Part shown: piece after piece, positions 1 through 19,723 of the stretch
How the letters are laid out: every line of letters begins with the position of its first letter
How positions within the stretch are numbered: the first letter of the stretch is position 1
DNA from: an uncultured virus (IMG/VR IMGVR_UViG_3300013845_000001)
Taxonomy: Duplodnaviria; Heunggongvirae; Uroviricota; Caudoviricetes
Direction: 5' to 3' (one strand)
Virus record (IMG/VR): IMGVR_UViG_3300013845_000001
Span: 108,565-128,564 of that record
DNA length: 20,000 nt
Program-made: the position numbers and the translations under genes
The notes under the pieces: model-generated
What the model saw: the letters and a program-made list of their open reading frames with translations, nothing else
Told to the model about the DNA's origin: nothing
Database searches by the model: none

Positions 1-31
1 TGGTATAGCGGCATTCATTAAAAACTACGGT
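1..31 (+). CDS. 3' end of upstream exon of phage tape measure protein (runs off window start)
   Basis: Frame 2 reads GIAAFIKNYG and ends in U31, followed by TAA at 32-34. Joins in frame to QLKDL at 3530 if 32-3529 is spliced out. Exon end TACGGT can pair with GCCTA (80-84), with a U31.G80 wobble and C28 bulged. Confidence 0.75.
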
Positions 32-614
32 TAACTCTGTAATAAGAGTTACGCTTAAATTTCCGAGGGATTTAAGTTGGCCTATCATGGGGAAGAATAT
101 ATCATAATGGCGATATAAACAATTCCATGGGACGAAAGTTTTAAAATAAAAAGAGGATTAATTGCTTGAAAGTGTAATGCTCACTACTCTTCTATTTTAG
201 AAGAAACCGAAAAATAAGGTAAATAAGTCAAACGGTTTACACACCGGAGTGAGATTTCTAGGGATAAAAAATAATTCCCGACAGATGTACAATCACCAAC
301 GAAGCAGCTAGCCCTATCTGTGTATCACGATGTATAATCCGATGGTAACAATTGCGCAAGCAATGTCGGGATAAGATCATTAATGATAGGGAGTGTTCAG
401 AGAGCACCACTCCTCACAGTACATGAAAGCCATATTTCATTGTGCTGTTAACGCATGTTCCAAAGTGTACACGATATCAACGCTTCACGAGGCGCTGGAT
501 ATTATAATGTTGTAAAAGATATGGGCTACAGCCTATCATTGAGCGTAATATGGAAAAGTTAATCGTTTCTATGTTATGTATCAAAATAGTTATGTAGATT
601 CTCCCATATTTTTA
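32..614 (+). ncRNA. Group I ribozyme core and peripheral helices
   Basis: P3 GAGGA 153-157/TCCTC 411-415; P4 TGCTT 163-167/AAGCA 302-306; P6a CCCTATC 312-318/GATAGGG 385-391; P7 G400,(A401 bulge),GAGCA 402-406/TGTTCC 456-461; P8 ACAGTACA 416-423/TGTGCTGT 441-448. P/Q/R/S-like motifs AATTGCTTGAAA, AAGCAGC, GTTCAGAGAGCA, ACGCATGTTCC occur in canonical order. Further helices extend to ~613 (515-525/603-613). Confidence 0.9.
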
Positions 615-721
615 AATAAAGTATTTATTCGCCTTTTTATATGATTGAATACTAATATAATGTACCATCCTATATATTGTTTGAATATAATACAATAAAT
701 CAAATGGAGATGTATAGAAAT

Positions 722-880
722 ATGACGAAAAAAATTATTAATTTGACCGAAGAAGGCGAAGCTCTAGGATATCCAAAAACTCCAGATTCTGAGATGATAG
801 AGATGGGTATATTTGATGGAAAGATAATCAATTTTATAAAAGTAATGTTTATAAAGATAGTTAAAATGATGAAAAGGTAG
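722..880 (+). CDS. Small hypothetical protein (52 aa; the track starts it at TTG 677), intron cargo
   Basis: GGAG at 706-709 upstream of ATG 722. Ends in a terminator-like hairpin. Contains YPKTPDSE. Confidence 0.5.
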   Translation: MTKKIINLTEEGEALGYPKTPDSEMIEMGIFDGKIINFIKVMFIKIVKMMKR

Positions 881-895
881 TCAATAGACTACCTT
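874..895. terminator. Probable bidirectional terminator between convergent small ORFs
   Basis: Perfect 9-bp stem AAGGTAGTC-aata-GACTACCTT overlapping both stop codons. Confidence 0.65.
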
Positions 896-1055
896 ATTCC
901 TCGTTCTTTTTATTTTTGTCGTTATCATTAACATGTTTAATTTCTGAGAACATCTCTACCACATATTCTGGTCTAGGCGTACTTGGATACTGTTCTCCTT
1001 TTTCATTGGTGTTATTAGTACTTGTCATCTTGATAACATTTTCATCGTCTGACAT
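894..1055 (-). CDS. Small hypothetical protein (53 aa, MSDDENVIKMTSTNNTNEKGEQYPSTPRPEYVVEMFSEIKHVNDNDKNKKNEE), not in ORF track
   Basis: Strong RBS GAAGGAGGAG just upstream of the ATG. Start overlaps the end of 1042-1623, suggesting translational coupling. Confidence 0.7.
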   Translation of the reverse strand: MSDDENVIKMTSTNNTNEKGEQYPSTPRPEYVVEMFSEIKHVNDNDKNKKNEE

Positions 1056-1623
1056 TTATTTCTCCTCCTTCTATATGAATATTTTGTATATTATTATTAT
1101 TTATAAATTTGGTCTCATAGTAATCAATACCGACACCGAATGTATACGATAAAATAGATACTGCGAAAGTGATGCATATGAAATAACTCAACGATTTATG
1201 TTTCATGTTCTTTGTAATGTTCACATTTCTATTATGAATGGCTTCATTAATAAAACATTCACAGAGCATATTATTTACATGTATATCTGCTTTTTTAATA
1301 TGCTTTTTATCTGTCATTTGATATGTTTGTGAGATCGCAACAGCCATATCTTTAATTGGGAAATAACTCATTTTATAGCCAGAGTATGCTTTATAAAACT
1401 TGTGCAAGCAAATTATAAATAAAATCGTTGACAAAGCGCAAAATATCAAGTAAACAATAGTACACCATGATAAAGAAAAACGAACAAATTGTGACCAAAG
1501 TAATATTTGTGCACTACCAAGTATTGTAAGAAACGTAATACAAGTATTAATTTTATTACTTAATCTATCGGAATATTCTATCTCCTTATAATATAAGTCT
1601 TTGTATTCTTCAAGCAATTCCAT
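1042..1623 (-). CDS. Hypothetical multi-pass membrane protein (193 aa), intron cargo
   Basis: About three hydrophobic segments. AAGGAG RBS. Upstream TGGTAAAAT extended -10. Confidence 0.85.
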   Translation of the reverse strand: MELLEEYKDLYYKEIEYSDRLSNKINTCITFLTILGSAQILLWSQFVRFSLSWCTIVYLIFCALSTILFIICLHKFYKAYSGYKMSYFPIKDMAVAISQTYQMTDKKHIKKADIHVNNMLCECFINEAIHNRNVNITKNMKHKSLSYFICITFAVSILSYTFGVGIDYYETKFINNNNIQNIHIEGGEINVRR

Positions 1624-1655
1624 ATGATGATGTTCTCCTTTGTATCATATGGAAT

Positions 1656-1697
1656 ATTTTACCATCGTCAATACAATAAAACAAGAAACAGATGTTT
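1656..1697 (-). promoter_or_regulatory. Sigma-A-like promoter of 193-aa gene with adjacent LexA-box-like palindrome
   Basis: TTGTTT (1684-1679), 17 bp, TG-G-TAAAAT (1664-1656). AAACAGATGTTT at 1686-1697 resembles the boxes at lexA and dinB. Confidence 0.5.
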
Positions 1698-1909
1698 GTC
1701 GATGAGGATATAAAATCGACATATTTCGACATTTATAATATTGAGTTAGTCATTAAGCTGTATATTAAAATAACATAAGCTGAACCCCTCTTTTATACTA
1801 CAATCTTGCGTCTTACTAGCTTCATTGTTTTCAAAATTTTTATACCTATCTGGAAATTTCTTCCACTCCATGATATAATAATTTTTAAAAGAGATACAGG
1901 AGGGATTGT

Positions 1910-3001
1910 ATGAAAAGGTTATTATCAATTGTATTAGTTTTTATTTTCTCTATTAGTTTACTCATGACGTCTTCTGCCGAAGAATATATGGGAGCATGGG
2001 TCACAGATGATATTGGAACTTGGTATCGATATAATGATGGAACATATCCTTCTTCCTGTTTTATAAAGAAAGATAGAAAACTTTATTATATTAATCAAGA
2101 TGGGTATGTAGCCCCTAATGTATCACTGTTTGGAGGATATCAAACAGATTCTCAAGGAACAGTTATAGGATATACTACTAAAAATAATGTCTATTCTTTA
2201 TTGCATACGTCTGATGGTTGGAGACAAGATGCAAATGGTTGGTGGTATCAATACCCAGACGGTTCTTACCCTAAAAATACTGATATTACTGTAAATGGTA
2301 AACTTTATTGGTTAGGAATTGACGGATATATGTTGCATGATTGTTATGCAAGAAATCATGGTTATTATGGAAGCGATGGCTCTTATGCTAATAAACTTGA
2401 TAAAAATGCAAAGATTACTATACAGCAACCAGCATCAGATACAAGAAGCGATGGAGCCGGGGTTGAAAATACATCGAATGAAGCTTTTCTTAATCTAGTC
2501 CATCCAGTCGATATAATAGGTGGCGGCTTTGTTGAAAATTATGTGGGTGGAATAAGTCCTAGCGTCGCTTTTAGAAACAACTCGGGTAAAGATATAAAAT
2601 ATGTAACCCTTGAAATGACACCTTATAACAGAGTTGGAGATCCTGTGAATTGTACAATCCGAAACTATTCAACAACAACATGTAGAGCCACGGGTCCATA
2701 CGCTCCTGATATGGGTGTTGGACAAGGAGCATATTCAATTACTTCTGGACTGGTACCAATATTTGATCATGATACAGATCACCCTTATTATTATACATCA
2801 CGCACTTTCGAAAAGAGGGAATTAGAAAAGGCAGCATATGCAAAGACATTTAATAACATGCCAGGTTGGGAAAATGTTTGGTATAATAGCAATATATATA
2901 AAATAAAAATCACAAAAGCTATTATTGATTATATGGATGGTACAAGTGACACAATATCCTCTTTAGATATTACAATGTTCCACGACGATTCCCTCAATTA
3001 A
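1910..3001 (+). CDS. Secreted protein with cell-wall (choline-binding-like) repeats, intron cargo
   Basis: Signal peptide. Repeats WYRYNDGTYP, GWRQDANGWWYQYPDGSYPKN, LYYINQDGY, LYWLGIDGYM. GGAGGG RBS and TGATATAAT at 1871-1879. Confidence 0.85.
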   Translation: MKRLLSIVLVFIFSISLLMTSSAEEYMGAWVTDDIGTWYRYNDGTYPSSCFIKKDRKLYYINQDGYVAPNVSLFGGYQTDSQGTVIGYTTKNNVYSLLHTSDGWRQDANGWWYQYPDGSYPKNTDITVNGKLYWLGIDGYMLHDCYARNHGYYGSDGSYANKLDKNAKITIQQPASDTRSDGAGVENTSNEAFLNLVHPVDIIGGGFVENYVGGISPSVAFRNNSGKDIKYVTLEMTPYNRVGDPVNCTIRNYSTTTCRATGPYAPDMGVGQGAYSITSGLVPIFDHDTDHPYYYTSRTFEKRELEKAAYAKTFNNMPGWENVWYNSNIYKIKITKAIIDYMDGTSDTISSLDITMFHDDSLN

Positions 3002-3032
3002 ACAAACAGTTAATTGATATAATATGAAATTC

Positions 3033-3066
3033 AAAAGACCTTTATCAACAAAGGTCTTTTTTCTTT
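3033..3066. terminator. Bidirectional intrinsic terminator
   Basis: AAAAGACCTTT-atcaac-AAAGGTCTTTT with A/T tracts on both sides, between convergent genes. Confidence 0.8.
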
Positions 3067-3472
3067 AAAATTTACTCCCACAATTATTGCATTTCCAAGT
3101 CTTACCGTTATCTCCCATGCCGAAAATTCCAAATGCAGCTATCTTTGCGACCTTTTTTGTTGCGGATATTTTAGAGAGGTTTGTGCTGCTACATGTGGGG
3201 CATTTTGGAATATTATTTTCTACCTGTTTTTGCGCCGCCCACATAGCCTCTTGCTCAGGAGTAGCTAAACCTACTGTTCTATTGCACTGAGGACAGATAT
3301 ATTCATTATTTTTTATTGAATAATTCATCTTGATCTTATTAGGCAACCCAAAATTACAATAAGGGCATTCTACTGTATTTTTTATTAGATCAAGATTAAA
3401 GCCACAATGTGGGCATGATTTTGCACTATCGCTAATATTATTATCGCATTCTGGACATTTAATTAAAGCCAT
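3065..3472 (-). CDS. Zinc-ribbon domain protein (135 aa), intron cargo
   Basis: Six CxxC motifs (CPEC, CPHC, CPYC, CPQC, CPTC, CNNC). GGGGGA RBS at 3481-3486. Confidence 0.85.
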   Translation of the reverse strand: MALIKCPECDNNISDSAKSCPHCGFNLDLIKNTVECPYCNFGLPNKIKMNYSIKNNEYICPQCNRTVGLATPEQEAMWAAQKQVENNIPKCPTCSSTNLSKISATKKVAKIAAFGIFGMGDNGKTWKCNNCGSKF

Positions 3473-3503
3473 AAATATATTCCCCCACTTATTATTTATG
3501 CAT

Positions 3504-3532
3504 ATTATACTTCTATTTATTGTTTAATGCAA
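3504..3532 (-). promoter_or_regulatory. Sigma-A promoter of zinc-ribbon gene, overlapping the intron 3' splice site
   Basis: TTGCAT (3532-3527), 17 bp, TATAAT (3509-3504). Confidence 0.7.
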
Positions 3533-6500
3533 CTTAAAGACCTCGGAAATCTTTCAAACGTTTTAAAGAATATAAATAGTAGTAACAATATAGCTGACAG
3601 TTTTAATGCTCTTGAAGTAAGTATGCAAAAGTGTGTGCTCGCCAGCGGAAAGTTAAGTGTTGCACAACTGGATGCAATAAATTCAGGTACCATATGGAAA
3701 ACCAACATTGATGGTACTATGGTTTCTGTATCAGGTCTTTCTAAGACTGAATTAGAAGCAGCAATTTCCACTACCACTCTCTCCGCTTCACAGACCACTG
3801 CAACAGCAACTACAACTGGATTCGGTACTGCCCTTAAAGGTCTTTGGGCAACCATGATGGCAAATCCTTTAATTGCAATAGGAATGGCCGTAACAGCTAT
3901 CTCAACAGCATGGAATATTTATAATCAGTCCATCGAAAAAACAAGACAAGCTTCAGCTGATGCGGCGGGCGCATTAAACGAAACCACCTCATCAATTAAT
4001 GATTATGCTGAAAAGTATAAAAAATTACACGATGAACTTGTCAAGGCAAACACTACCGAAGAACGACAGCATGAAATAAAAAGTGATCTTCTTGCGCTCC
4101 AACAAGAATTAAACGATAAGTACGGAGATGAGTACGGAAAATTAAATCTTGTTACAGATGCTTATAATGATCAGACCGATGCAATCTTGGCAAGAAATAA
4201 AGCCGCTGCACAAAATTACCTTCTTGAAAATAGAAAAGGTATAGCTGATGCGACTAAGCAAATGGAACAAGACCGTACCTATACGCTTGGCAGCACTGGT
4301 AATTTATCAAACGACTATGCAAAAGAAATATATAGTATAGCTTCAAAATACTCTAACCAGGGTATAAAACTAGAGTCTCTTAAAAATAACGGAGTAGATG
4401 CCTATACCATCAAGTTTTTTGGAAATGCCGAAAATGCAGAAAAAGTCATACGTAATCTCTCCAATGAGATTCAAGATCTTGGAAATAAATATGAAGACAA
4501 CAACTTCATCAATGGGTTCTTAGATAACTCAACAAATGCACTTAAAGAGAACCAAAAAATATTAGATAAATACGATGAAATATATAACTCCGCATTGATG
4601 TCTCAAATTGCCACTGATAACGAACTATCAGAAGGTTATAATAAGGCTACAAATGCCGTTAAAGCATATAACGATGCACTAATTTCTGGTGACGAATCTA
4701 AAATATTATCGGCAAGAGATGATCTTAGGGAAGTAAAAAATTCCATTGATTTAACAAGCGATAACTGGAAACGATATGGAAATGTAATGACTGATATTTT
4801 CGATCAGGCTAATACTGGACTATACGATTTTAGAGATGCGCTCTCTTCAAATAACGATAATATCAAAGATTATGCTAAAAATCTAAAAGGTTTATCAAAA
4901 ACAGATGTATTATCCATGGCAAATGATGGAAAAGATGATAGTTTTGATAAAATTGTTGAATCTGCCAATAAATATGGATTAAGTATTAACCAGGTCATTG
5001 ATGAATTGGTCAGATTGAAATTTGTTCAAGATGATGTAGCAAAATCTGGTGAAGTAGCATTCACTCCTCTCTCCAAGCAAGAAGTAATTTCAAACATCAA
5101 CTCTCTATCTGAAGGTTTTGAATCTTTAGATAAAATTATGAAGAGTATATCCGACAAAGATAATCCGTTTGACTATGCTCTACTAGATGACAAAAAGTTC
5201 AAAGATAATTTTAAAGACTTGGGAGAATCATATACCGATTTCGTTGAAAAAGTATCTTCTTCACCAAAAGATATTAATATCACAAAATCTGCATTCAATG
5301 ATCTCGTAACTACATGGATTGATAGTTCTGGTGTATTAAATGGACTTACAGACGAAAACGCCAATCTTGCTACTGCTATGCTTCAGAACATGGGTGTTGC
5401 TAATGCGGAAGAAGTTGTAATGTCTCGATTAGCAATTGCACAGGAGCATTTAGCTGCTGAAAAAGCTTATACGGCAGAAGTAAGTAATGACCTCGCAAAT
5501 GCTACCGCCAGTGAGATTCCAGGAATCATAGATGAGGCAACTCAAAGTGATATCGCTAAGGTTGCGCTTGCCGGGCTGGTATTAGAGAAGGAATTTTTCA
5601 ATGGAAATGCACTTGATACTAGTGGAGATATTCAAAATATCATCTCTCTTATCGGGGTCATCGGTACTGCCAATACAGCACTCAAAGCGTTAAATACCTT
5701 GAAAGCCGGTGGAAATGTAGGAGGCAATATTGGGGGAAAAGAAGGCTATGATGCTCTTGTAAGAAACGCACAACAGGAAGTAGATGAAGCAATAAAGGCT
5801 GCTTCTGAGTATAAGGGCAAGGGTTCAAGTGTCAACGCATCGTATACAGGTGGTACAAAAACAAACAAGCCCTCTTCTGGTTCTAAAAAAGATAAAAAAG
5901 ACACCGAGAAACCTATTGACTGGATTGAGCGACAGCTAAAATTGCTTAAAGATAAAAGGTCAGAACTGGTCAGTAAAATTTCTGACACCTATTCTGCATT
6001 TTCCACAGCTACGCATGATCAAATTCTGGAGCTGGACAAAACACTCATTGACGAATATGCAAACGCAGTTAATCAGTATCAGCAGGAATATGATAAAGCT
6101 GTTAGTAAAATATCGGCTCAAAACAAAGCAAAAATAGAAAATGGGTCTATGTCTGTAGACACTCTTTCTGGTACTGAATTAGAAAATGTGCAATCAGCAA
6201 TGGACGCTTATGATAAACTCGCTGGTACACAGAAGGAACAATCTGAAGCACAAAAAACGCATCTAGATGATATAAAGTCTAAATATGATGCTATTTCAAA
6301 ATCTATTGAGAATGAAAACAATAAATTAAAAGATTCTAATTCTATACTAGAAAGCCAGATGGAATATTACAAGTCATCTGGTATTGTTATCGACTCTTCA
6401 TTTTACGACAGGCTTATTCGGAATACGTCAGGATTAATTTCTAATGCCAGAGATACAATTAGTAATAAACGAGCGGAATTAAGGGATCTGCTTGCTAATG

Positions 6501-8476
6501 GAGCAGACAAGTCCTCACAAGAGTATATTGATCTGAAAAGTGAAATTGCTGATGCAGAGAATAATGTATATGCTCTAAAAAAGGCGCAGGAAGAATACAG
6601 TAACCAACTACTCCAAATGCCAATAGACCACCTCTCCACATTAGTTTCGATGTATCAGGATATTGGAACCGCTATTTCGGATTGGGGAGCCGAGGTTGAG
6701 GCCTCTGGAAAGAAATTGGACGCAGGATATTACCAGCGTTTAATATCTAATAGTGCAAAAGTCGTAGATAATTTGAAAGAACAAGCATCATTAATTGAAG
6801 ATACCATGTCTGAATATGAAGTGGGAAGTGACCGCTACCTTGAACTCTATAATCAGTTACGGTCTGTTAACTCTGAAATGTCTACCACCGTCCAGAACAT
6901 GCGTAAGCTAAATGAAGAGATGTTGAAACTTCCGCTTGAAAATATCGGTAGTTTTTCAACAGAGTTGCAGAAAGTAGCAGATGCATTAAGCAAGGTGCAA
7001 GAAGAACAGGATTTAGTTATCTCGGCAGTCACGAACGCTATTCAGAAACAGATTGATGTTATTAACGACCAGAAAAACGCATACCAGGAAGCTAACGAAT
7101 CACAGAAGAAGGGTTTAAAGGATAAACTTGACTTACTTCAAAAGCAGAATACCCAATTAAAGCGACAGACCGACTATGAACAGTCTTTATATGATCTTCA
7201 AAAAGTGAACCAGCAAGCCACCGAGGCTGTAATTCGTGATGGAGAAAAAGTTTATGAGGTAAACGCAGATAAGCAAAGAGAAGCTCTCGAAAAAGTTCAA
7301 GATGCAAAATTCGCTCTCGAAACCGGAAAGATTCAAGATGAAATTGACGCACTCGATGAAGCGCTTGAAAAACAGAATGAATTATATGATTCACAGATAA
7401 AGAATCTTGAAACTATTGCAGATCGATGGAAACAAATTGCAGAGAACATCAAAATTGCACAGGACGAAGCAAAGGCCGATGATATTCTAGGCGCCGGCTG
7501 GAAAGACAAGATACTCTCTGGTAATGACACTGCCCTATTTAATACATTCTCAGGAATGTACGCAAACACCGCTGAACAGCTCAAAAAGTATCAAGATCAA
7601 ATAGACTCCACAAATAATATTCAGTCATTGTTAGAGGATTACATTGCTTCATATAAGGAAGGAACAATCACTTACGATGAAGCCGTAAAAGGTATCAATA
7701 ATCTCCTATCTCAGCTCAATCAGAAAATGTCTGCCACAGATAATTTGAAGAATATCTTTGATTATTTAGGTACCGTAAATGACACGGCTGCTAACGCAGA
7801 TGCGATTCTGACGGGTATCCAAAGTGGATTGAAAGATACTGCCACTGAGTTACTAAAGTCCTTAGAACAGTACAATAAGAATGCTGGAATGATATCTGAA
7901 TATACGTCTAGTTGGCAGAAACTTACCGACAACGTGTCTTCAATGCTTGAAGTGCTAAAAGAAGTCAGAAACAATTTAGAAGATAGTTATGATTATGAGC
8001 GAGATCGTGACAATGATAATACTAGATATGGAGGAGGAAAAGACGGAAGTCCCGGAACTCCCGGAAAGGGCGACTACGTAAATAGTGGCCCTGGTGTATA
8101 TGCTGATGGCATCAAAAATGGACTTGTTGGGAAATCTACAGATTCTGAGCGAGAAAAGATGCTCAAACATCTTGCTACAAATAATTTGAAGCCGGGAGAA
8201 GTTCCAATACTTGCTCATGAGGGAGAGGCTATCTTTAATGATGAACAACAGAATAATCTTCTAAAGAACTTGGCGTCTGCTAATAGTTTTAAGCCTAATA
8301 TTCCTGATTATGGCAGTTTTCTAAATCAAATTACAGTAAGAGAATCGACTCCAAAGCAAGAGTTTAATTTTGGGGATATCAACATTCAGAAATGTGATGC
8401 TCCAGATCAATTAGCACAAGGAATATTAGATGGTAAACTTGCATTGGCATTAGGACAAAGACTCGGAAAAAGATAA
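3530..8476 (+). CDS. Phage tail tape measure protein, downstream exon (ORF track 3527-8476, 1649 aa)
   Basis: Long Ala/Leu-rich helical and coiled-coil protein with a hydrophobic MANPLIAIGMAVTAI segment and C-terminal GEVPILAHEGEAIF motif, upstream of tail genes. ATG 3527 has no RBS. Confidence 0.9.
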   Translation, partial: QLKDLGNLSNVLKNINSSNNIADSFNALEVSMQKCVLASGKLSVAQLDAINSGTIWKTNIDGTMVSVSGLSKTELEAAISTTTLSASQTTATATTTGFGTALKGLWATMMANPLIAIGMAVTAISTAWNIYNQSIEKTRQASADAAGALNETTSSINDYAEKYKKLHDELVKANTTEERQHEIKSDLLALQQELNDKYGDEYGKLNLVTDAYNDQTDAILARNKAAAQNYLLENRKGIADATKQMEQDRTYTLGSTGNLSNDYAKEIYSIASKYSNQGIKLESLKNNGVDAYTIKFFGNAENAEKVIRNLSNEIQDLGNKYEDNNFINGFLDNSTNALKENQKILDKYDEIYNSALMSQIATDNELSEGYNKATNAVKAYNDALISGDESKILSARDDLREVKNSIDLTSDNWKRYGNVMTDIFDQANTGLYDFRDALSSNNDNIKDYAKNLKGLSKTDVLSMANDGKDDSFDKIVESANKYGLSINQVIDELVRLKFVQDDVAKSGEVAFTPLSKQEVISNINSLSEGFESLDKIMKSISDKDNPFDYALLDDKKFKDNFKDLGESYTDFVEKVSSSPKDINITKSAFNDLVTTWIDSSGVLNGLTDENANLATAMLQNMGVANAEEVVMSRLAIAQEHLAAEKAYTAEVSNDLANATASEIPGIIDEATQSDIAKVALAGLVLEKEFFNGNALDTSGDIQNIISLIGVIGTANTALKALNTLKAGGNVGGNIGGKEGYDALVRNAQQEVDEAIKAASEYKGKGSSVNASYTGGTKTNKPSSGSKKDKKDTEKPIDWIERQLKLLKDKRSELVSKISDTYSAFSTATHDQILELDKTLIDEYANAVNQYQQEYDKAVSKISAQNKAKIENGSMSVDTLSGTELENVQSAMDAYDKLAGTQKEQSEAQKTHLDDIKSKYDAISKSIENENNKLKDSNSILESQMEYYKSSGIVIDSSFYDRLIRNTSGLISNARDTISNKRAELRDLLANGADKSSQEYIDLKSEIADAENNVYALKKAQEEYSNQLLQMPIDHLSTLVSMYQDIGTAISDWGAEVEASGKKLDAGYYQRLISNSAKVVDNLKEQASLIEDTMSEYEVGSDRYLELYNQLRSVNSEMSTTVQNMRKLNEEMLKLPLENIGSFSTELQKVADALSKVQEEQDLVISAVTNAIQKQIDVINDQKNAYQEANESQKKGLKDKLDLLQKQNTQLKRQTDYEQSLYDLQKVNQQATEAVIRDGEKVYEVNADKQREALEKVQDAKFALETGKIQDEIDALDEALEKQNELYDSQIKNLETIADRWKQIAENIKIAQDEAKADDILGAGWKDKILSGNDTALFNTFSGMYANTAEQLKKYQDQIDSTNNIQSLLEDYIASYKEGTITYDEAVKGINNLLSQLNQKMSATDNLKNIFDYLGTVNDTAANADAILTGIQSGLKDTATELLKSLEQYNKNAGMISEYTSSWQKLTDNVSSMLEVLKEVRNNLEDSYDYERDRDNDNTRYGGGKDGSPGTPGKGDYVNSGPGVYADGIKNGLVGKSTDSEREKMLKHLATNNLKPGEVPILAHEGEAIFNDEQQNNLLKNLASANSFKPNIPDYGSFLNQITVRESTPKQEFNFGDINIQKCDAPDQLAQGILDGKLALALGQRLGKR

Positions 8477-9934: not shown

Positions 9935-11605
9935 ATGTACGCAACAATACATACAATAGCTCCATTTGATTCTTCTGTCGGTACAAATATTAACTTCACT
10001 TGGTCTGGTAATCAAATCTATAAAGTGAGATGTATCATAAAAAATAATGCTACGGGAGTAACGGCATACGATAGTACAATAGATACAATGAAGCAAGTCT
10101 ATATTCTTCCACCCACTCCCACCTTAATAAATGGTACAAAATACGTAGCCTATATCACTGTATTTGATGTAAACAATAATGAATCTACAATACAGAATAT
10201 AGGTACTCCATTCTATTGTTTTACAACCCCAACCTTCAATTTATCAGTTTCAAATGGAGACATTATCAGAGCATCATCATATTCTATCGGGTTAACTTAT
10301 TCGCAGGTCGAAAGTGAATTATTAAACTGGTTTAATATTACGTTGTATAGTTATCAAAAGACACTTGTTGATTCGTCTGGACAAATATATGACACGACTA
10401 ATCTATCCTATATCGTAAGTAATTTGCAAAATGCAACCCAATATTATATCCGTGCTACAGGGGAAACCGTAAACGGAATGAGCTTGGATACAGGATATGT
10501 ACTTGTCACTGTATCATACACTACTGCCCAAGTTTTCAGTACATTAGAATTAAATAATATATCAGATACTGGTGCGATTGAAATAAAAAGCAATATAATT
10601 TCAGCCGAAGGAGAATCAGAATCGGATGTTACATACATAGATGGCGAATCGGCAGATTTGCGTGATAATAGTGTAATATTTAAGGAAGGATTTTTGTTAG
10701 ATGGAGATTTTACAAAAATATATAAGTTTAGCAAGGCAACCAGAAACAAATCAATTATTACATTCGGAACCACAGATGGTTTGACTGTAAATGTGTACTA
10801 TCGTATTGGGAGTTGGTCGGATTCTGATGGTGAAAAAGCATACTTTGAACTAGTTGCTAATTCATGTGGGATAAATTATATTTCAAATAGTGGATACGTT
10901 GCTACACATTCAGACGATTATCACCAGTATTCGTTGTTGATTAATCGAGTCAATGGTTTATTTGATTTAAAAGCAGAGGTTGTCAGTTCAGTAATTAGAT
11001 ATTCCGCAAGTGCAGATGGTAGTAATATGACAACCACGAAACAAAGTAATTCTGCTTATGTTGGAGTTTGTGATGTACCAGACGAGATAATTACGTTGTG
11101 GGAGAGTAGCGGAAGGAATCTACTAAGGTATAGCGATTTTAAAGAATTAAATTCAAGTTGGTATTCAGTAAGGGGGAGTGCTTATTCGTTATCCATCGAC
11201 GATAATATTACTAATGGGCATAAATCATTAAAGATAATAGGTAATGCTGCGGGACAGGCTGGCCAAGATATACAGTTTAAGACTGCTATAACAGCTAATG
11301 ATGGTGAACACTGTGTTTTGTCGTTCTATGCTAAATCCAATGTTGAATGTGTTCTTTCTGCGAGGTGGGGGCTTACTTCATCATATAAAATAGTACAAGT
11401 TACAAATGAGTGGATTAAGTATACTATGGAACTACCTAGAAACCTAAGCCAACCTCACGATTCTATATACATTATTTTTAACAAAATAGGAGAGTTCTAT
11501 ATTAATAGTCCAAAATTAGAGAGAGGTTCCACCGCAACTCCCTGGACACCCGCTCCTTCTGATTATATTTCAGACAATACTAATTACACTTGGACTGCAC
11601 TATAA
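9935..11605 (+). CDS. Phage tail/baseplate protein with Ig/FN3-like N-terminus and C-terminal carbohydrate-binding-like domain
   Basis: Beta-rich. LQNATQYYIRATG is FN3-like. GRNLL...PKLERGSTATPWTPAP brackets the CBM-like domain typical of tail proteins. Confidence 0.75.
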   Translation: MYATIHTIAPFDSSVGTNINFTWSGNQIYKVRCIIKNNATGVTAYDSTIDTMKQVYILPPTPTLINGTKYVAYITVFDVNNNESTIQNIGTPFYCFTTPTFNLSVSNGDIIRASSYSIGLTYSQVESELLNWFNITLYSYQKTLVDSSGQIYDTTNLSYIVSNLQNATQYYIRATGETVNGMSLDTGYVLVTVSYTTAQVFSTLELNNISDTGAIEIKSNIISAEGESESDVTYIDGESADLRDNSVIFKEGFLLDGDFTKIYKFSKATRNKSIITFGTTDGLTVNVYYRIGSWSDSDGEKAYFELVANSCGINYISNSGYVATHSDDYHQYSLLINRVNGLFDLKAEVVSSVIRYSASADGSNMTTTKQSNSAYVGVCDVPDEIITLWESSGRNLLRYSDFKELNSSWYSVRGSAYSLSIDDNITNGHKSLKIIGNAAGQAGQDIQFKTAITANDGEHCVLSFYAKSNVECVLSARWGLTSSYKIVQVTNEWIKYTMELPRNLSQPHDSIYIIFNKIGEFYINSPKLERGSTATPWTPAPSDYISDNTNYTWTAL

Positions 11606-15687: not shown

Positions 15688-16623
15688 TCATGCGTCATCT
15701 TCTTTAATTCTACATTCTCTTGGTAACTTGTTTTCTCTCACACTTTTAAACGTTGGTTGACGAATACCCTCTTTTTCAGAAGGCATATATTCAATAGTAC
15801 ATACCATTGGTTCCATCCATGTCGCATCAGCATACCCTTTTAAGTTTTTTATAGGACAATTAGAAATTCTCATTCCGTGTTGGTTGAGCTTAGCGATACT
15901 TACGCCAAGAGAAACGTGGTTAGTGATAATTAATTCATCGTCGTCATTGTACTTCGCCAGAATCAGCGTTGTCATACTGTTCTTATTAGGAATATATCCT
16001 ATGCAGACAAAATCTTCTTCTTTAAGCACTTTGATCTTCTTCCAATCCCTAGATCGCTTTCCAAACCAATATAGACTTGCCTTCTTTTTTCCAACGACTC
16101 CTTCCAAGCCATTTTCCTCTGCAAAATTGTATATCGCAATTCCATTCTTTTCAACGTATCGAGATTTTGACAATATGTCACTTTCAGATATTACTTCGTC
16201 TAATAACTTTTTACGCTCAATTAGTGGTAAATCAGTTACTTGTTTATCTTTATAGTAAAGTATATCATAAACTACAAAATTTGCTGGGTGTTTTTTATAC
16301 GCTAGTTCTATCTTAAAGGGATCAGTTAAAACCGTCCTTCTTTGAACTTCGTAAAAATCCGGCTTCCCATTAACCAATACGTTTAACTCCCCGTCGAGTA
16401 TGCATTTCTGTTTGCAGCCCTTAAACAATAATTCTAATTCCGGAAACCTTGACAACAAGCTCATATTTCGCTTATTTCTCAAATCGGTAGATTTATAATC
16501 ATTATAAGCAATGCATCTGATCCCATCAAATTTAAGCTCAAAGATAGAATCCACATCATCATACGGATCAACTCTTTCAGATATAAGCATGGGCTTAATA
16601 CCCTTTTCATCGAAAATATCCAT
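15688..16623 (-). CDS. ATP-dependent DNA ligase (LigD/LigC-type ligase domain only)
   Basis: Motif I ELKFDGIR, III LDGEL, IIIa VYDILY, IV EGVVGK, V WKKIK, VI IRQPTFKSVR. Confidence 0.92.
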   Translation of the reverse strand: MDIFDEKGIKPMLISERVDPYDDVDSIFELKFDGIRCIAYNDYKSTDLRNKRNMSLLSRFPELELLFKGCKQKCILDGELNVLVNGKPDFYEVQRRTVLTDPFKIELAYKKHPANFVVYDILYYKDKQVTDLPLIERKKLLDEVISESDILSKSRYVEKNGIAIYNFAEENGLEGVVGKKKASLYWFGKRSRDWKKIKVLKEEDFVCIGYIPNKNSMTTLILAKYNDDDELIITNHVSLGVSIAKLNQHGMRISNCPIKNLKGYADATWMEPMVCTIEYMPSEKEGIRQPTFKSVRENKLPRECRIKEDDA

Positions 16624-16702
16624 TATACCCTCTTGTTTCGCTTTGCCATATTATCAGTGATCTAATTATTGTACTAATAACCGAAAATCCTATACATGCA
16701 CT

Positions 16703-17014
16703 TTATATTACCATGATCCACTTACACGATTCCATATAAAAAACCAGTTTAAATTCATGACGTATGCCGCCAATGATTGCATCACAGTGAAATTCTTTTG
16801 ATGGAATTCCATTATAATTTTTATCTTCAGTGCATTTTATAATTATATCAGATATTGTTTGTATCACGCCATCATCGCCTTCAAATTTGAAACTTAGGGG
16901 GCGAGGGCTGCAATTAGCGGTAAACCAAGCCTTGCAAGCAATATTGTACTTCTTACCGTGTAGCTCTCCGCTATCAATCTCTTTTACATTTGTTCCAATC
17001 CCAAATGCACTCAT
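16703..17014 (-). CDS. Small beta-rich protein downstream of dinB (putative polymerase accessory factor)
   Basis: P.P.SF and terminal L.F......W pattern. Operonic with the Y-family polymerase. Confidence 0.7.
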   Translation of the reverse strand: MSAFGIGTNVKEIDSGELHGKKYNIACKAWFTANCSPRPLSFKFEGDDGVIQTISDIIIKCTEDKNYNGIPSKEFHCDAIIGGIRHEFKLVFYMESCKWIMVI

Positions 17015-17027
17015 GTTACCTTACCAC

Positions 17028-18290
17028 CTATAATATATTTTGAGTTTCATAATTCACGGTTCTCTTTTCACGACTGATTCCGCCGCTCATATGGTCAACT
17101 TTATCGGCCTTAATAAAACTTGCTCTTACAATGGAATCTGTGCCAAACCTTTTCCTTATATCGTCCACCGCTCTATCTAGACGCTCCTGTTTCTCATAAT
17201 CCATATCATCAAATAGGTTGAGCTGTCTTGTATCTTCAGTTACTACTTGGCTGGTATGAATACCAAGATGTCGGATTGGAACCTTATCCCACATTTCATC
17301 AAACACTTGGCAAGCTGATTCGTAGATTTCTCTTGTTATGTTGGTGGCAGTTTTCAGTTTCTTTTGGTGGCTGTAATACCCAAGGTTATAATCCCTTATT
17401 CCAACAGATATTACTTTGATTTTCACGTTGTTATCTCTTAATCTTGCACTAACTGTCTCCGCTAATGAAAGTAAAACTAATTTTGCAGTATTGACATCCG
17501 TAACATCAAATGCGATTGTGGTACTGTTACCATAGCCCTTATTTGGTGGCGGTACAGGTTCAACTGCCGAGAAATCAATTCCATTTGCAAAAGACCATAT
17601 TACTTCCCCGTGTTTACCAAGATGAGATTTAATTATTGATAGATCAGTTTGTGCTAACTCTCCTATTGTTTTAATGCCTAGATTGTTAAGTTTACGCGCA
17701 GTAGCTCTACCAACAAAAAATAGGTCAGATGCAGGAAGCACCCACATTTTATCCTTTATTTCACTTAACCACAGTGTATGCACCTTATCAGGCTTTTTAA
17801 AGTCTGATGCCATCTTAGCCAGGACTTTATTATTTGAAATTCCAATATTTACCGTAAAGCCAAGTTCTCTATAAATACGCTCTCTTATTTTATTTGCAAT
17901 ATCTTCTGGCTTTCCAAACAATGATTCTGTGCCAGTCATATCCATGTACGCCTCATCGATGGAATATTGTTCTACAACGGGGCCATATTCCTTTAAAATA
18001 TTTATGAAAGCTTTTGATGATTTTTGATATAGATTATAATTAGGAGGAACAAGAACGAGGTCAGGACACTTTCTTAATGCTTCAGGTACGGATTCTCCTG
18101 TTTTTATATTATATTTCTTTGCTGGTATACTTTTCGCAAGTATAATACCATGTCTTTTTGTAACGTCACCACCAACCGCTGACGGTATGTTTCGCAGGTC
18201 TAAATTCCCACCCAAATGGTGTATCCGATATACTGCTTCCCAACTTAGAAAGGCGGAGTTTACATCGATATGAAAAATTACTTTATTCAC
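17028..18290 (-). CDS. dinB: Y-family DNA polymerase (Pol IV/UmuC-like)
   Basis: HIDVNSAF, YSIDEA, LAKMASDFKKP, clamp motif QLNLF, LDRAVDDIRKRFG. Confidence 0.93.
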   Translation of the reverse strand: MNKVIFHIDVNSAFLSWEAVYRIHHLGGNLDLRNIPSAVGGDVTKRHGIILAKSIPAKKYNIKTGESVPEALRKCPDLVLVPPNYNLYQKSSKAFINILKEYGPVVEQYSIDEAYMDMTGTESLFGKPEDIANKIRERIYRELGFTVNIGISNNKVLAKMASDFKKPDKVHTLWLSEIKDKMWVLPASDLFFVGRATARKLNNLGIKTIGELAQTDLSIIKSHLGKHGEVIWSFANGIDFSAVEPVPPPNKGYGNSTTIAFDVTDVNTAKLVLLSLAETVSARLRDNNVKIKVISVGIRDYNLGYYSHQKKLKTATNITREIYESACQVFDEMWDKVPIRHLGIHTSQVVTEDTRQLNLFDDMDYEKQERLDRAVDDIRKRFGTDSIVRASFIKADKVDHMSGGISREKRTVNYETQNIL

Positions 18291-18308
18291 ATAATCACCT
18301 CTAGAGAT

Positions 18309-18329
18309 ATTGTACTCGAATGTATGTTC
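18309..18329 (-). promoter_or_regulatory. SOS (LexA) box and -10 element of dinB operon
   Basis: GAACATACATTC (18329-18318), one mismatch to Firmicute GAAC-N4-GTTC, next to TACAAT (18314-18309). Confidence 0.7.
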
Positions 18330-18347
18330 GTTTGATAGTGGAAATTA

Positions 18348-18370
18348 AAGGAAGCATTATTTGCTTCCTT
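18348..18370 (-). terminator. Terminator hairpin after the lexA operon
   Basis: AAGGAAGCA-ttatt-TGCTTCCTT. Confidence 0.65.
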
Positions 18371-18375
18371 ATTTT

Positions 18376-18705
18376 TTACTTATATGCCGGTTCAAATCCG
18401 CGTTGCTCATTATAAGCATATTGCAATAGGTCATATAATTCATTTGTAATAGTTCCCATACCATTATATCCATCAAGCATATCAATTATTTTTGATGCAT
18501 ATTCCGATGGCGCTGATTTTCCATCGATTCCCCTATATAGTTCTTCCTTTATTTTCTCCAAGTTTTCATGCTTCTGTGGTAGTGGAAGGCCATACATCTT
18601 CGCCAAGATTCCTATCGCACAACAACACTCATTAACAGATGTCAATGTAATCCCTTGAAATCTTGATTTTATTTCGATTGCTTGTTTATTTATAGAGAAT
18701 ACCAT
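18376..18705 (-). CDS. Hypothetical protein (109 aa) downstream of lexA
   Basis: AAAGGA RBS, followed by a terminator. No family recognised. Confidence 0.7.
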   Translation of the reverse strand: MVFSINKQAIEIKSRFQGITLTSVNECCCAIGILAKMYGLPLPQKHENLEKIKEELYRGIDGKSAPSEYASKIIDMLDGYNGMGTITNELYDLLQYAYNEQRGFEPAYK

Positions 18706-18735
18706 GTTGATTTTCCTTTGTGTTTTTATATTTTA

Positions 18736-19356
18736 TCAATGAATACCCGGTCTAAATAAACCTATAACTTTTCCTAAAATCGCTACCTGATCTACTATAA
18801 TTGGTTCCATTGAATCATTTTCTGGCTGTAAGCGGTAATGTCCGTCCTCCTTGAAGAATCGCTTTACTGTGGCTGAGTCCCCTACTAACGCAACAACTAT
18901 ATCTCCATTTTCTGCCATTGGACATTGTTCTATAATGATCTGATCTCCTTCGAGAATACCTGCGTTAATCATACTATTCCCCTTTACGTTTAACATAAAT
19001 GTCTCGGCATTTGGGAGAAGGTCAGATGGTATAGGGTAATAATTTTCAATGTTTTCCTCAGCATATAAAGGTTGACCAGCAGCCACGGTTCCAAGGAGCG
19101 GAACTTTTACAACGTCCCGTTGCTCTAAATTAAAACAATCTTCCATAATTTCGATAGCTCGTGGCTTGGTTGGGTCTCTTTTAATATATCCCTTTTCCTC
19201 AAGTGTCTCCAGGTGAGAGTGGACGGATGATGTTGATTTTAAACTGACCGCTTCGCAAATCTCTCTGACTGCTGGTGGATATCCTCTATTATTTATTGAC
19301 TCTTTTACATAATCAAATATTTGCTTTTGTATTTTACTCAATCTTATATTTCTCAT
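18736..19356 (-). CDS. lexA: LexA repressor (206 aa; start corrected to ATG 19356)
   Basis: GYPPAVREIC...STSSVHSHL winged HTH, RDPTKPRAIE, Ala-Gly site VAAGQP, catalytic GNSM and TVKRF. AGGTGGG RBS. Confidence 0.95.
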   Translation of the reverse strand: MRNIRLSKIQKQIFDYVKESINNRGYPPAVREICEAVSLKSTSSVHSHLETLEEKGYIKRDPTKPRAIEIMEDCFNLEQRDVVKVPLLGTVAAGQPLYAEENIENYYPIPSDLLPNAETFMLNVKGNSMINAGILEGDQIIIEQCPMAENGDIVVALVGDSATVKRFFKEDGHYRLQPENDSMEPIIVDQVAILGKVIGLFRPGIH

Positions 19357-19381
19357 AGGTATGCCCACCTTTCTATATGGT

Positions 19382-19420
19382 ACTATACCATATGTAATTT
19401 GAAAATGCAAACATATGTTC
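19382..19420 (-). promoter_or_regulatory. lexA promoter with overlapping SOS box
   Basis: TTGCAT (19410-19405), 17 bp, TG-G-TATAGT (19390-19382). GAACATATGTTT at 19420-19409. Confidence 0.8.
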
Positions 19421-19477
19421 TGCTCTTCACAAAAAAATATGCCGAAAACCCTCATTGCGAAGATTCTCGGCATAAAT

Positions 19478-19723
19478 TCAGCTACCCTGTTCAACTTCAG
19501 CTTTGGATATAAGTAATTCCTTTAATTCAGCTAAGGACATGTTTTGCTCTTCTAGTATTGATGAAACCTCTTTAAACTCTTCTAACTTAATTTCATCTTG
19601 TATTTGCTTCTCTTTTTCCTGAAGCGTTTTGATTGAGGCTTTATATTGCTCTATCGAATCTTGTGTGTCTTTTAGTTCATCTCTGAGTTTTACGAGTGGT
19701 GATTTGCGAACTCCACGTGGCAT
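19478..19723 (-). CDS. Small coiled-coil hypothetical protein (81 aa)
   Basis: AGGAGG RBS, TGGTATAAT at 19767-19759, downstream hairpin at ~19438-19474 with a T tract. Confidence 0.8.
   Translation of the reverse strand: MPRGVRKSPLVKLRDELKDTQDSIEQYKASIKTLQEKEKQIQDEIKLEEFKEVSSILEEQNMSLAELKELLISKAEVEQGS

Follow-up and report, generated by a model that had tools for sequence, protein, structure and literature searches.

How does a phage keep an essential structural gene usable when kilobases of unrelated genes stand inside its coding sequence? The question is raised by the tape measure protein (TMP) gene of an uncultured Caudoviricetes virus, IMG/VR record IMGVR_UViG_3300013845_000001, of which we analyzed positions 108,565 to 128,564, i.e., a stretch of 20,000 nt referred to below as the window. 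The window is the final 20 kb of a 128,564-bp record with 77-bp direct terminal repeats and 34% G+C, and its TMP gene is interrupted from position 32 to position 3529. We consider it likely that this interruption is a group I intron whose cargo is something other than an endonuclease, and we place the same confidence in the joint statement that it is such an intron and that its source is a temperate SPbeta-like phage of Lachnospiraceae. That 32–3529 is spliced we infer from sequence, with the following layout:

1..31, plus strand: final 31 nt of tape measure exon 1, ending ...AAC TAC GGT
32..3529, plus strand: whole intervening sequence, 3498 nt, beginning with an in-frame TAA (32–34) and ending at G3529
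3529, plus strand: terminal G (omega G) within ...AATG, a G in 5/5 related introns
3530..8476, plus strand: tape measure exon 2, 1648 codons plus stop, opening CAA CTT AAA

The coding parts on either side of the interruption were first compared with intact genes. Upstream, a 518-residue open reading frame (ORF; genome positions 107042–108595, C-terminus ...GIAAFIKNYG) carries the PF10145 minor tail/tape measure domain (E = 9e-21) behind a strong ribosome-binding site (gagaggag-N6-ATG), in agreement with the first-pass annotation, which had taken this ORF for the N-terminus of a TMP. Its best matches among named phages include yomI, the tape measure gene of SPbeta-like Bacillus phages. Downstream, the ORF as called has 1649 residues and begins at ATG 3527, a codon that falls within the intron. 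The first 400 residues of this ORF matched 147 proteins, and the 120 listed included 7 uninterrupted proteins of 2124–2537 residues with PF10145, i.e., intronless TMP alleles of the kind the first-pass annotation had hoped to see in relatives. These intact homologues span the site as ...GIGAFVKNFEQLKNAS..., ...AFIKNFDNLKN... or ...AFVKNFQDLKN..., with the consensus ...AF(V/I)K(N/S)F-x-(Q/N/D)LK... (an example is ...KNFEQLKN... versus ...KNYG followed by QLKD... here). Joined directly, ...AFIKNYG and QLKDLGN... align to all seven without a gap, the M of ATG 3527 remains unmatched, and the interruption falls exactly between two codons. Both the in-frame ligation GIAAFIKNYG-QLKDLGNL and the boundary letters proposed at first pass (exon 1 end at 31, TAA at 32, G3529, CAA at 3530) were thus reproduced. 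A further 30 of the 120 listed proteins were ORFs beginning exactly at (M/L)QL(K/Q), which indicates that the break is common and that its second half is called as a separate protein by gene callers.

No start signal was apparent at the beginning of exon 2. The 18 nt 5' of ATG 3527 contain no Shine–Dalgarno match (duplex free energy, dG, +1.0), as the first-pass annotation had noted, compared to a median dG of −7.15 for 80 ORFs of ≥150 residues from the same genome and −9.1 for exon 1; the same absence was found in 5/5 related introns (dG +0.4 to +3.6). The codon before exon 2 is ATG in four of these five copies and TTG in the fifth. Since three other introns of the clade also end in TG before exon sequence in the middle of a domain (AATG in the two that precede MKGELD and NEF, ATTG in the third), the ATG at the junction would reflect a habit of intron ends, and it is probably not a start codon.

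The strongest evidence for the intron reading is covariation between exon and intron. Besides the window, the comparison included four introns with homologous cores, from the viral contigs L002 (93% core identity) and L003 (~100%), from Lacrimispora sp. HJ-01 (L016, 97%) and from G202 (72%), the last being one further genome found among 401 searched in the same family. At the 5' splice site, the U31-G80 wobble of helix P1 was retained in 4/4 aligned homologues, while the adjoining P1 pair 30-81, formed by exon base 30 and guide base 81, was G-C in three homologues and C-G in G202, in which exon 1 ends ...TTCGCT instead of ...TACGGT. At the other end, the 9-nt guide that the first-pass annotation had described at 71–79 is indeed an exact reverse complement of 3530–3538, and it belongs to a longer pairing, P10, of 21 nt:

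59..79, plus strand: P10 guide, which pairs with nt 1–21 of exon 2
3530..3550, plus strand: P10 target, first 21 nt of exon 2

When 1–3700 was scanned for repeats without bias, this pair came first among the inverted repeats listed (21 nt, 90% complementary), with a duplex score of 15.8 versus a mean best score of 9.4 (standard deviation 1.3, maximum 14.6) in 200 shuffles. C3530-G79 opens P10 next to the wobble base G80, which is the geometry expected of P10. The pairing was present in 5/5 related introns, with 19, 19, 19, 18 and 18 Watson–Crick pairs of 21. Compensatory changes distinguish the window from G202 at guide positions 65 and 62, and L003 from G202 at positions 70 and 69. Guide/exon covariation among relatives, which the first-pass annotation had suggested looking for, was therefore observed both in P1 pair 30-81 and at P10 positions 62, 65, 69 and 70. 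The second-best duplexes between the core and the 3' end of the intron scored no higher than shuffles. A conserved 3'-terminal intron element, e.g., P9.0, was also considered and rejected, as none was found in four aligned copies beyond ...(A/T)TG, and the intron shows no conservation over its final 100 nt.

The 5' part of the intron is consistent with a group I ribozyme core. P4, P7 with its bulged A401, and U31-G80 were located where the first-pass annotation had put them, and a fold of 32–503, in which P1, P3 and P4 were hard constraints and the P7 strands were held unpaired, filled in the remaining helices to give the canonical series P1, P2, P2.1, P3, P4, P5 with an extension, P6/6a/6b, P8 and P9. 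The putative elements, all on the plus strand, are:

29–36/75–82: P1, with the U31-G80 wobble at the 5' splice site
within 83..152: P2 (86–92/123–129), P2a (98–103/112–117) and P2.1 (130–133/138–141, GAAA loop), from the constrained fold and covariation
153–157/411–415: P3, of the catalytic core 153..461
163–167/302–306: P4, in the catalytic core
172–174/294–296: P5, with an extension at 180–286; covariation in 3/3 pairs
312–318/385–391: P6, plus P6a and P6b (GCAA loop); covariation
400 and 402–406/456–461: P7, A401 bulged, crossing P3 as a pseudoknot
416–428/435–448: P8; covariation
462..503: P9 region, whose 3' edge is the end of conservation and the start of the cargo

In a four-sequence alignment, 94.8% of the cells of the 107 proposed pairs were paired, and 25 of the 107 pairs had changes on both sides, compared to 7.5 ± 2.4 in 500 shuffles (none of the 500 reached 25) and 2–4 in slid controls. 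One of the 25 connects exon 1 with the guide, and the compensatory pairs also include those in P2 (3), P2a (3), P5 (3/3), P5a (2), P6 (2), P6a (2), P6b (1) and P8 (5). An alternative P5 at 172–177/237–242 was discarded, being broken by G202, which favors 172–174/294–296. The pairs G402-C460, beside the bulged A401, and G400-C461 are all present and invariant, and G402-C460/A401 may be the guanosine-binding site, given its likeness to the textbook core. In L005a, which belongs to another intron lineage at this site, the same helices are built from different but complementary letters: its P3 is a 7-nt perfect complement of different sequence, its P4 is TGCTG/CAGCA versus TGCTT/AAGCA in the window, and its P7 is GAGTC/GACTC versus GAGCA/TGTTC, both with a bulged A and an outer G-C pair. 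In L004a, an intron of the same gene that could be aligned to the Rfam model RF00028, P7 is GACTA/TAGTC.

Beyond the P9 region, homology between copies gives way to a compartment of variable genes. Conservation ends at 501–505 in L002, L003 and L016, and among DNA contigs from other samples, one replaces 505–1904 with 1362 other letters and another replaces 502–3190 with 3302. The first-pass annotation had placed a landing site for accessory genes 3' of P7; the cargo does lie inside the intron, while its true start is 3' of P9, after ~503. The five intron copies are 950, 3084, 3498, 3857 and 4416 nt long, and each carries a different cargo set, with mosaic sharing: the window and L003 have the first three genes in common, the window and L016 the zinc-ribbon gene, and L002 and L016 two others. 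Cargo in related prophages is thus variable, as anticipated at first pass, and in every relative it is swapped from a fixed point at ~501–505. In the window, the compartment holds:

677..880, plus strand: ORF of 67 residues with a TTG start and no family; the same in L003; weakly supported as a gene
894..1055, minus strand: ORF of 53 residues, acidic, no family; weakly supported as a gene
1042..1623, minus strand: ORF of 193 residues with hydrophobic segments, promoter-like site at 1671–1644
1910..3001, plus strand: ORF of 363 residues with a signal-peptide-like N-terminus, promoter-like site at 1851–1879
3033..3060, plus strand: terminator-like hairpin with a T run 3' of it, flanked by two convergent cargo genes
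3065..3472, minus strand: ORF of 135 residues, multi-zinc-ribbon

All five ORFs that the first-pass annotation had counted as cargo genes exist, and for those of 67 and 53 residues the backing is identity in one near-identical relative. The 193-residue product is a probable membrane protein, and the 363-residue protein contains repeats resembling the wall-binding part of an endolysin (phrog_7854, E = 3e-16). In keeping with the proposed lack of a homing endonuclease, none of the five ORFs (0/5) matched a known endonuclease family, including LAGLIDADG, GIY-YIG, HNH, His-Cys and PD-(D/E)xK, in Pfam, PHROGs, NCBIfam or PADLOC, although an endonuclease of a novel family may be hidden among the unannotated cargo proteins. 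There was likewise no significant IS200/IS605 transposase, TnpB or recombinase domain in the five ORFs, the best hits being zinc-ribbon fragments below the cut-off. A conserved intron protein encoded beside the 3' splice site was considered and rejected, since the antisense genes there do not form one family, that of L002 being lipoprotein-like. As a separate observation, the C-terminal ~50 residues of the 135-residue protein (window 3068–3232, minus strand) comprise a CPxC, a hydrophobic stretch and then a CxNC, and this module recurs at 36–91% identity in the cargo of six other loci, in several intron lineages and on either strand (L003 11255–11416, L016 10415–10564, L015 9381–9527, L004 10736–10870, L008 10588–10725 and L023 9361–9474). 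The cargo breakpoints 3191 and 3214 fall within the zinc-ribbon gene, and the module may be a recombination handle or have an intron-linked function.

Taken together, these features suggest the following course of events. The ribozyme (P1–P9) would occupy the first 472 nt of the intron and the ~3 kb from P9 to the 3' splice site would be a passenger compartment, with accessory genes on both strands, some of them behind promoter-like sites, and with one terminator-like hairpin. The cargo would be expressed from the prophage, and upon late transcription the entire 3.5 kb would be removed as RNA: U31-G80 in P1 would mark the 5' splice site, the 21-nt P10 with the start of exon 2 would locate the distant 3' splice site at G3529, and ligation would give the junction ...AACTACGGT joined to CAACTTAAA... 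and one 2166-residue tape measure protein (...KNYG-QLKD...). Because splicing would render the insertion harmless, the compartment would be free to gain, lose and swap genes by ordinary recombination, and the mosaic cargo pattern suggests a neutral landing site of this kind.

Several observations weigh against this reading. RF00028 gave nothing at its gathering score on the window and, at E ≤ 10, no match on 1–3700, on 1–540 or on the whole genome, i.e., the core in which the first-pass annotation had seen a complete group I intron went unscored by the group I covariance model even at E ≤ 10 on 540 nt. The helices P3, P4 and P7 are invariant in all four aligned sequences and, being unvarying within the lineage, yield no covariation evidence of their own, and P5b and P9 are badly preserved in G202. 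The unconstrained fold is lower in energy than the constrained one (−118.4 versus −106.9 kcal/mol, with P7 left unpaired in the latter), and local hairpins at 32–51 and 54–76, preferred in the unconstrained fold, compete with P1. Simple cis-splicing would have to proceed through the sense-strand hairpin 3033–3060 (an 11-bp stem with only 3 G-C pairs), three cargo genes are antisense inside the intron, and a TAA right after exon 1 together with an ATG (TTG in one copy) at the junction would equally be expected of a gene divided into two cistrons. We did not take the RF00028 null as a refutation, because the model barely sees the gene's other introns (two further breaks in relatives scored 40.9 bits, E = 2.5e-10, and 19.6 bits, E = 6.5e-4, neither reaching the cut-off of 50 bits), and because a 2025 study describes it as incomplete and possibly missing phage intron variants (PMC11878797).

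A gene truly split by an accessory island into two cistrons, with stop TAA32, start ATG3527 and the core an inactive relic, would account for the codons at both borders (ATG in 4/5 copies, TTG in 1/5), for the internal terminator-like hairpin, for the RF00028 null and for the 30 of the 120 listed proteins in which the second part is called separately. We nonetheless hold it to be quite unlikely: the ATG lacks a Shine–Dalgarno match in 5/5 copies, the TG ending recurs in three other introns of the clade (two of them AATG) before mid-domain exon sequence, and a relic would not hold 72% nucleotide identity while the exons drop to 27% protein identity, and would not retain compensatory substitutions in those P1 and P10 pairs to which the exons contribute a base. 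The same hairpin, the unusual length of P10 and the lack of conservation in the last 100 nt of the intron would also suit trans-splicing, in which an RNA of exon 1 and the ribozyme ends in the cargo and a second RNA, starting at ~3490 and carrying the last ~40 intron nt and exon 2, is joined to it via the 21-nt guide. A promoter-like site on the plus strand at 3452–3481 (TGGACA, 18 nt, TATATT; 10/12 matches), ~40 nt from the 3' splice site and inside the start of the antisense zinc-ribbon gene, points toward that splice site and could in principle give such a second RNA. However, promoter-like sites are not enriched in the intron (30 versus 22.5 ± 3.9 in shuffles), conservation of 3452–3481 was not established in L002 or G202, a device of this sort is superfluous in the 950-nt homologue, and no natural phage trans-splicing group I intron was found in the literature searched, so that we regard trans-splicing as very unlikely and favor cis-splicing through the hairpin. 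Removal at the DNA level, as an inverted-end transposon or as an element excised site-specifically, draws on the 21-nt inverted repeat near both ends and seems to us scarcely credible, given that one arm begins 27 nt into the element and the other is situated beyond it, within coding sequence, that the arms covary like RNA pairs (one G-U pair included), that no recombinase or transposase domain was found, and that 31 and 3530 are linked in none of the DNA contigs from four runs.

Given a likely group I intron at this site, its relationship to other interruptions of the same gene can be examined in relatives. In seven related viral contigs, the TMP gene is broken at several other positions, up to three per gene, including:

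L003 6343–8397: other interruption
L004 3707–5745: other interruption
L007 2695–4185 and 4369–5979: other interruptions
L008 4260–5781 and 6208–6686: other interruptions

Five of these six breaks are 1.5–2 kb long and hold a single sense-strand ORF of 395–478 residues, with NUMOD1 or a treble-clef zinc finger in two of the five; the remaining one, of 479 nt, has no ORF. The two RF00028 scores quoted above are the only ones among the six. At the codon boundary used in the window, by comparison, there are at least four intron lineages, and the cargo of L004b, L008c and L005a at this boundary includes Bro-N/ANT antirepressor-like, PemK-like and NsnA/GmrSD-like genes, the NsnA/GmrSD_N-like protein matching PADLOC at E = 4e-37:

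L005 9187–10158: NsnA/GmrSD_N-like, PemK-like or Bro-N/ANT cargo of other lineages
L008 7611–8534 and 9188–10003: the same group of cargo
L005 7497–8291: the same group of cargo

The P1 and P10 of the L004b, L008c and L005a lineages could not be assigned confidently. In L004b, 17 nt close to the 5' end of the intron (L004 6586–6602) are complementary to the stretch of 17 nt, 10929–10945, that immediately precedes its terminal G (score 13.0 versus 9.6 ± 1.3 in shuffles), and this complement is only partly retained in L008c; it may be another way to bring a distant 3' splice site to the core.

Three further observations concern related genomes and the surroundings of the gene. The P1–P2 part of the core, on its own, has partial matches of 70–74% in a further two genomes of the family, one of which holds two such matches within 3.6 kb (G362 contig 1 458977–459068 and 462549–462640, loci L022 and L020; G234 613400–613503, locus L021). 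In the Lachnospiraceae genome of locus L015 (7011–7091), an exon 1 that is 89% identical in protein is followed by 27 unrelated codons and a stop, without a core of the window type, and short stretches resemble window cargo 554–614 and 1560–1739; L015 is probably one more intron lineage at the same site. In the window itself, the minus strand at 15688–19494, 3' of the tail genes, encodes an ATP-dependent DNA ligase, a Y-family (ImpB/MucB) polymerase, a DUF3837 protein and a LexA-like S24 repressor. Close relatives were found within Lachnospiraceae genomes, including one Lacrimispora chromosome, and a DNA search of the INPHARED phage collection with window 1–3700 gave no match.

The comparison with G202 also bears on mobility. 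The two cores share 72% nucleotide identity while the exons share about 27% protein identity, i.e., the intron is far better preserved than its host gene, which indicates that it moved between distant host genes, into the same local sequence, and did so without a recognizable endonuclease. It may have been helped in trans, have recombined via short flanks that are conserved, or have reverse-spliced with the long pairing as its guide; in the last case, the long guide may give target specificity for spread among TMP genes of 27% protein identity. A tentative and rather doubtful extension is that endonuclease-less introns at this one TMP site act as RNA-erasable integration platforms of Lachnospiraceae prophages, cost-free to the host gene and collecting passengers expressed in lysogeny, with the 21-nt guide finding a splice site kilobases off.

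If splicing occurs as proposed, accessory-gene hot spots can hide within coding sequences, and an essential gene would double as a parking place for extra genes; in dozens of contigs, gene callers already report its second half as a protein of its own. Such splicing would also provide a natural design for removing kilobase-sized inserts from mRNA via a long guide, and would raise the question of how an endonuclease-less intron passes between very different host genes. Most accounts present group I introns either as bare ribozymes or as carriers of one homing endonuclease, and IStrons are, to our knowledge, the one known case of a different kind of passenger. The literature searched, to which most subscription journals did not belong, contained no account of a phage group I intron carrying several genes that are exchangeable and encode something other than an endonuclease. 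Group I introns in TMP genes and IStrons are thus already known, and what appears to be new here is the multi-gene mosaic cargo on both strands.

The nearest known introns by host gene are those of Bacillus cereus-group prophages, in which the group I introns TMP-IVS1, IVS2 and IVS3a/b occupy three tape measure gene sites (Tourasse and Kolsto 2008, PMC2504315). The resemblance covers the prophage TMP gene as host, several sites per gene, different lineages fitted to one site, P1/P10 matched to the site, and some copies without a complete endonuclease gene. The window intron differs in lacking P7.1/P7.2, in the ~3 kb of unrelated genes, encoded on both strands, that follow P9, and in its 21-nt P10. 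IStrons (CdISt1, BcISt1 and others) combine an IA2 ribozyme with P7.1/P7.2 and an IS200/IS605 payload of forward-strand ORFs, within 482–2582 nt (Tourasse et al. 2014, PMC4227781; review PMC3984707). They share with the window intron the order of ribozyme first and payload between the P9 domain and the 3' splice site, and the removal of a long passenger with the intron. Unlike IStrons, the window family has mosaic accessory genes on both strands, no transposase domain, and lengths of up to 4416 nt, and the IStron ribozyme traits P7.1/P7.2 and P9.0–P9.2 are not seen in the window, where only 4 nt separate P7 (ending at 406) from P3' (starting at 411) and P9 is short. Endonuclease-carrying phage introns, e.g., those of Bastillevirinae (PMC11878797), follow the same host-gene logic and also occur in the TMP genes of the relatives L003, L004, L007 and L008; that type has one endonuclease-like sense-strand ORF, which the window intron does not have.

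In its gene content, the compartment resembles phage morons. Morons and accessory hot spots are variable genes inserted between genes, and the cargo described here is similar in consisting of variable genes within a late structural operon, some of them behind promoter-like sites, along with one terminator-like hairpin, and with defense-like and toxin-like genes in other lineages. Unlike morons, the hot spot in the window would lie inside an essential coding sequence, where it would be tolerated only if removed from the RNA.

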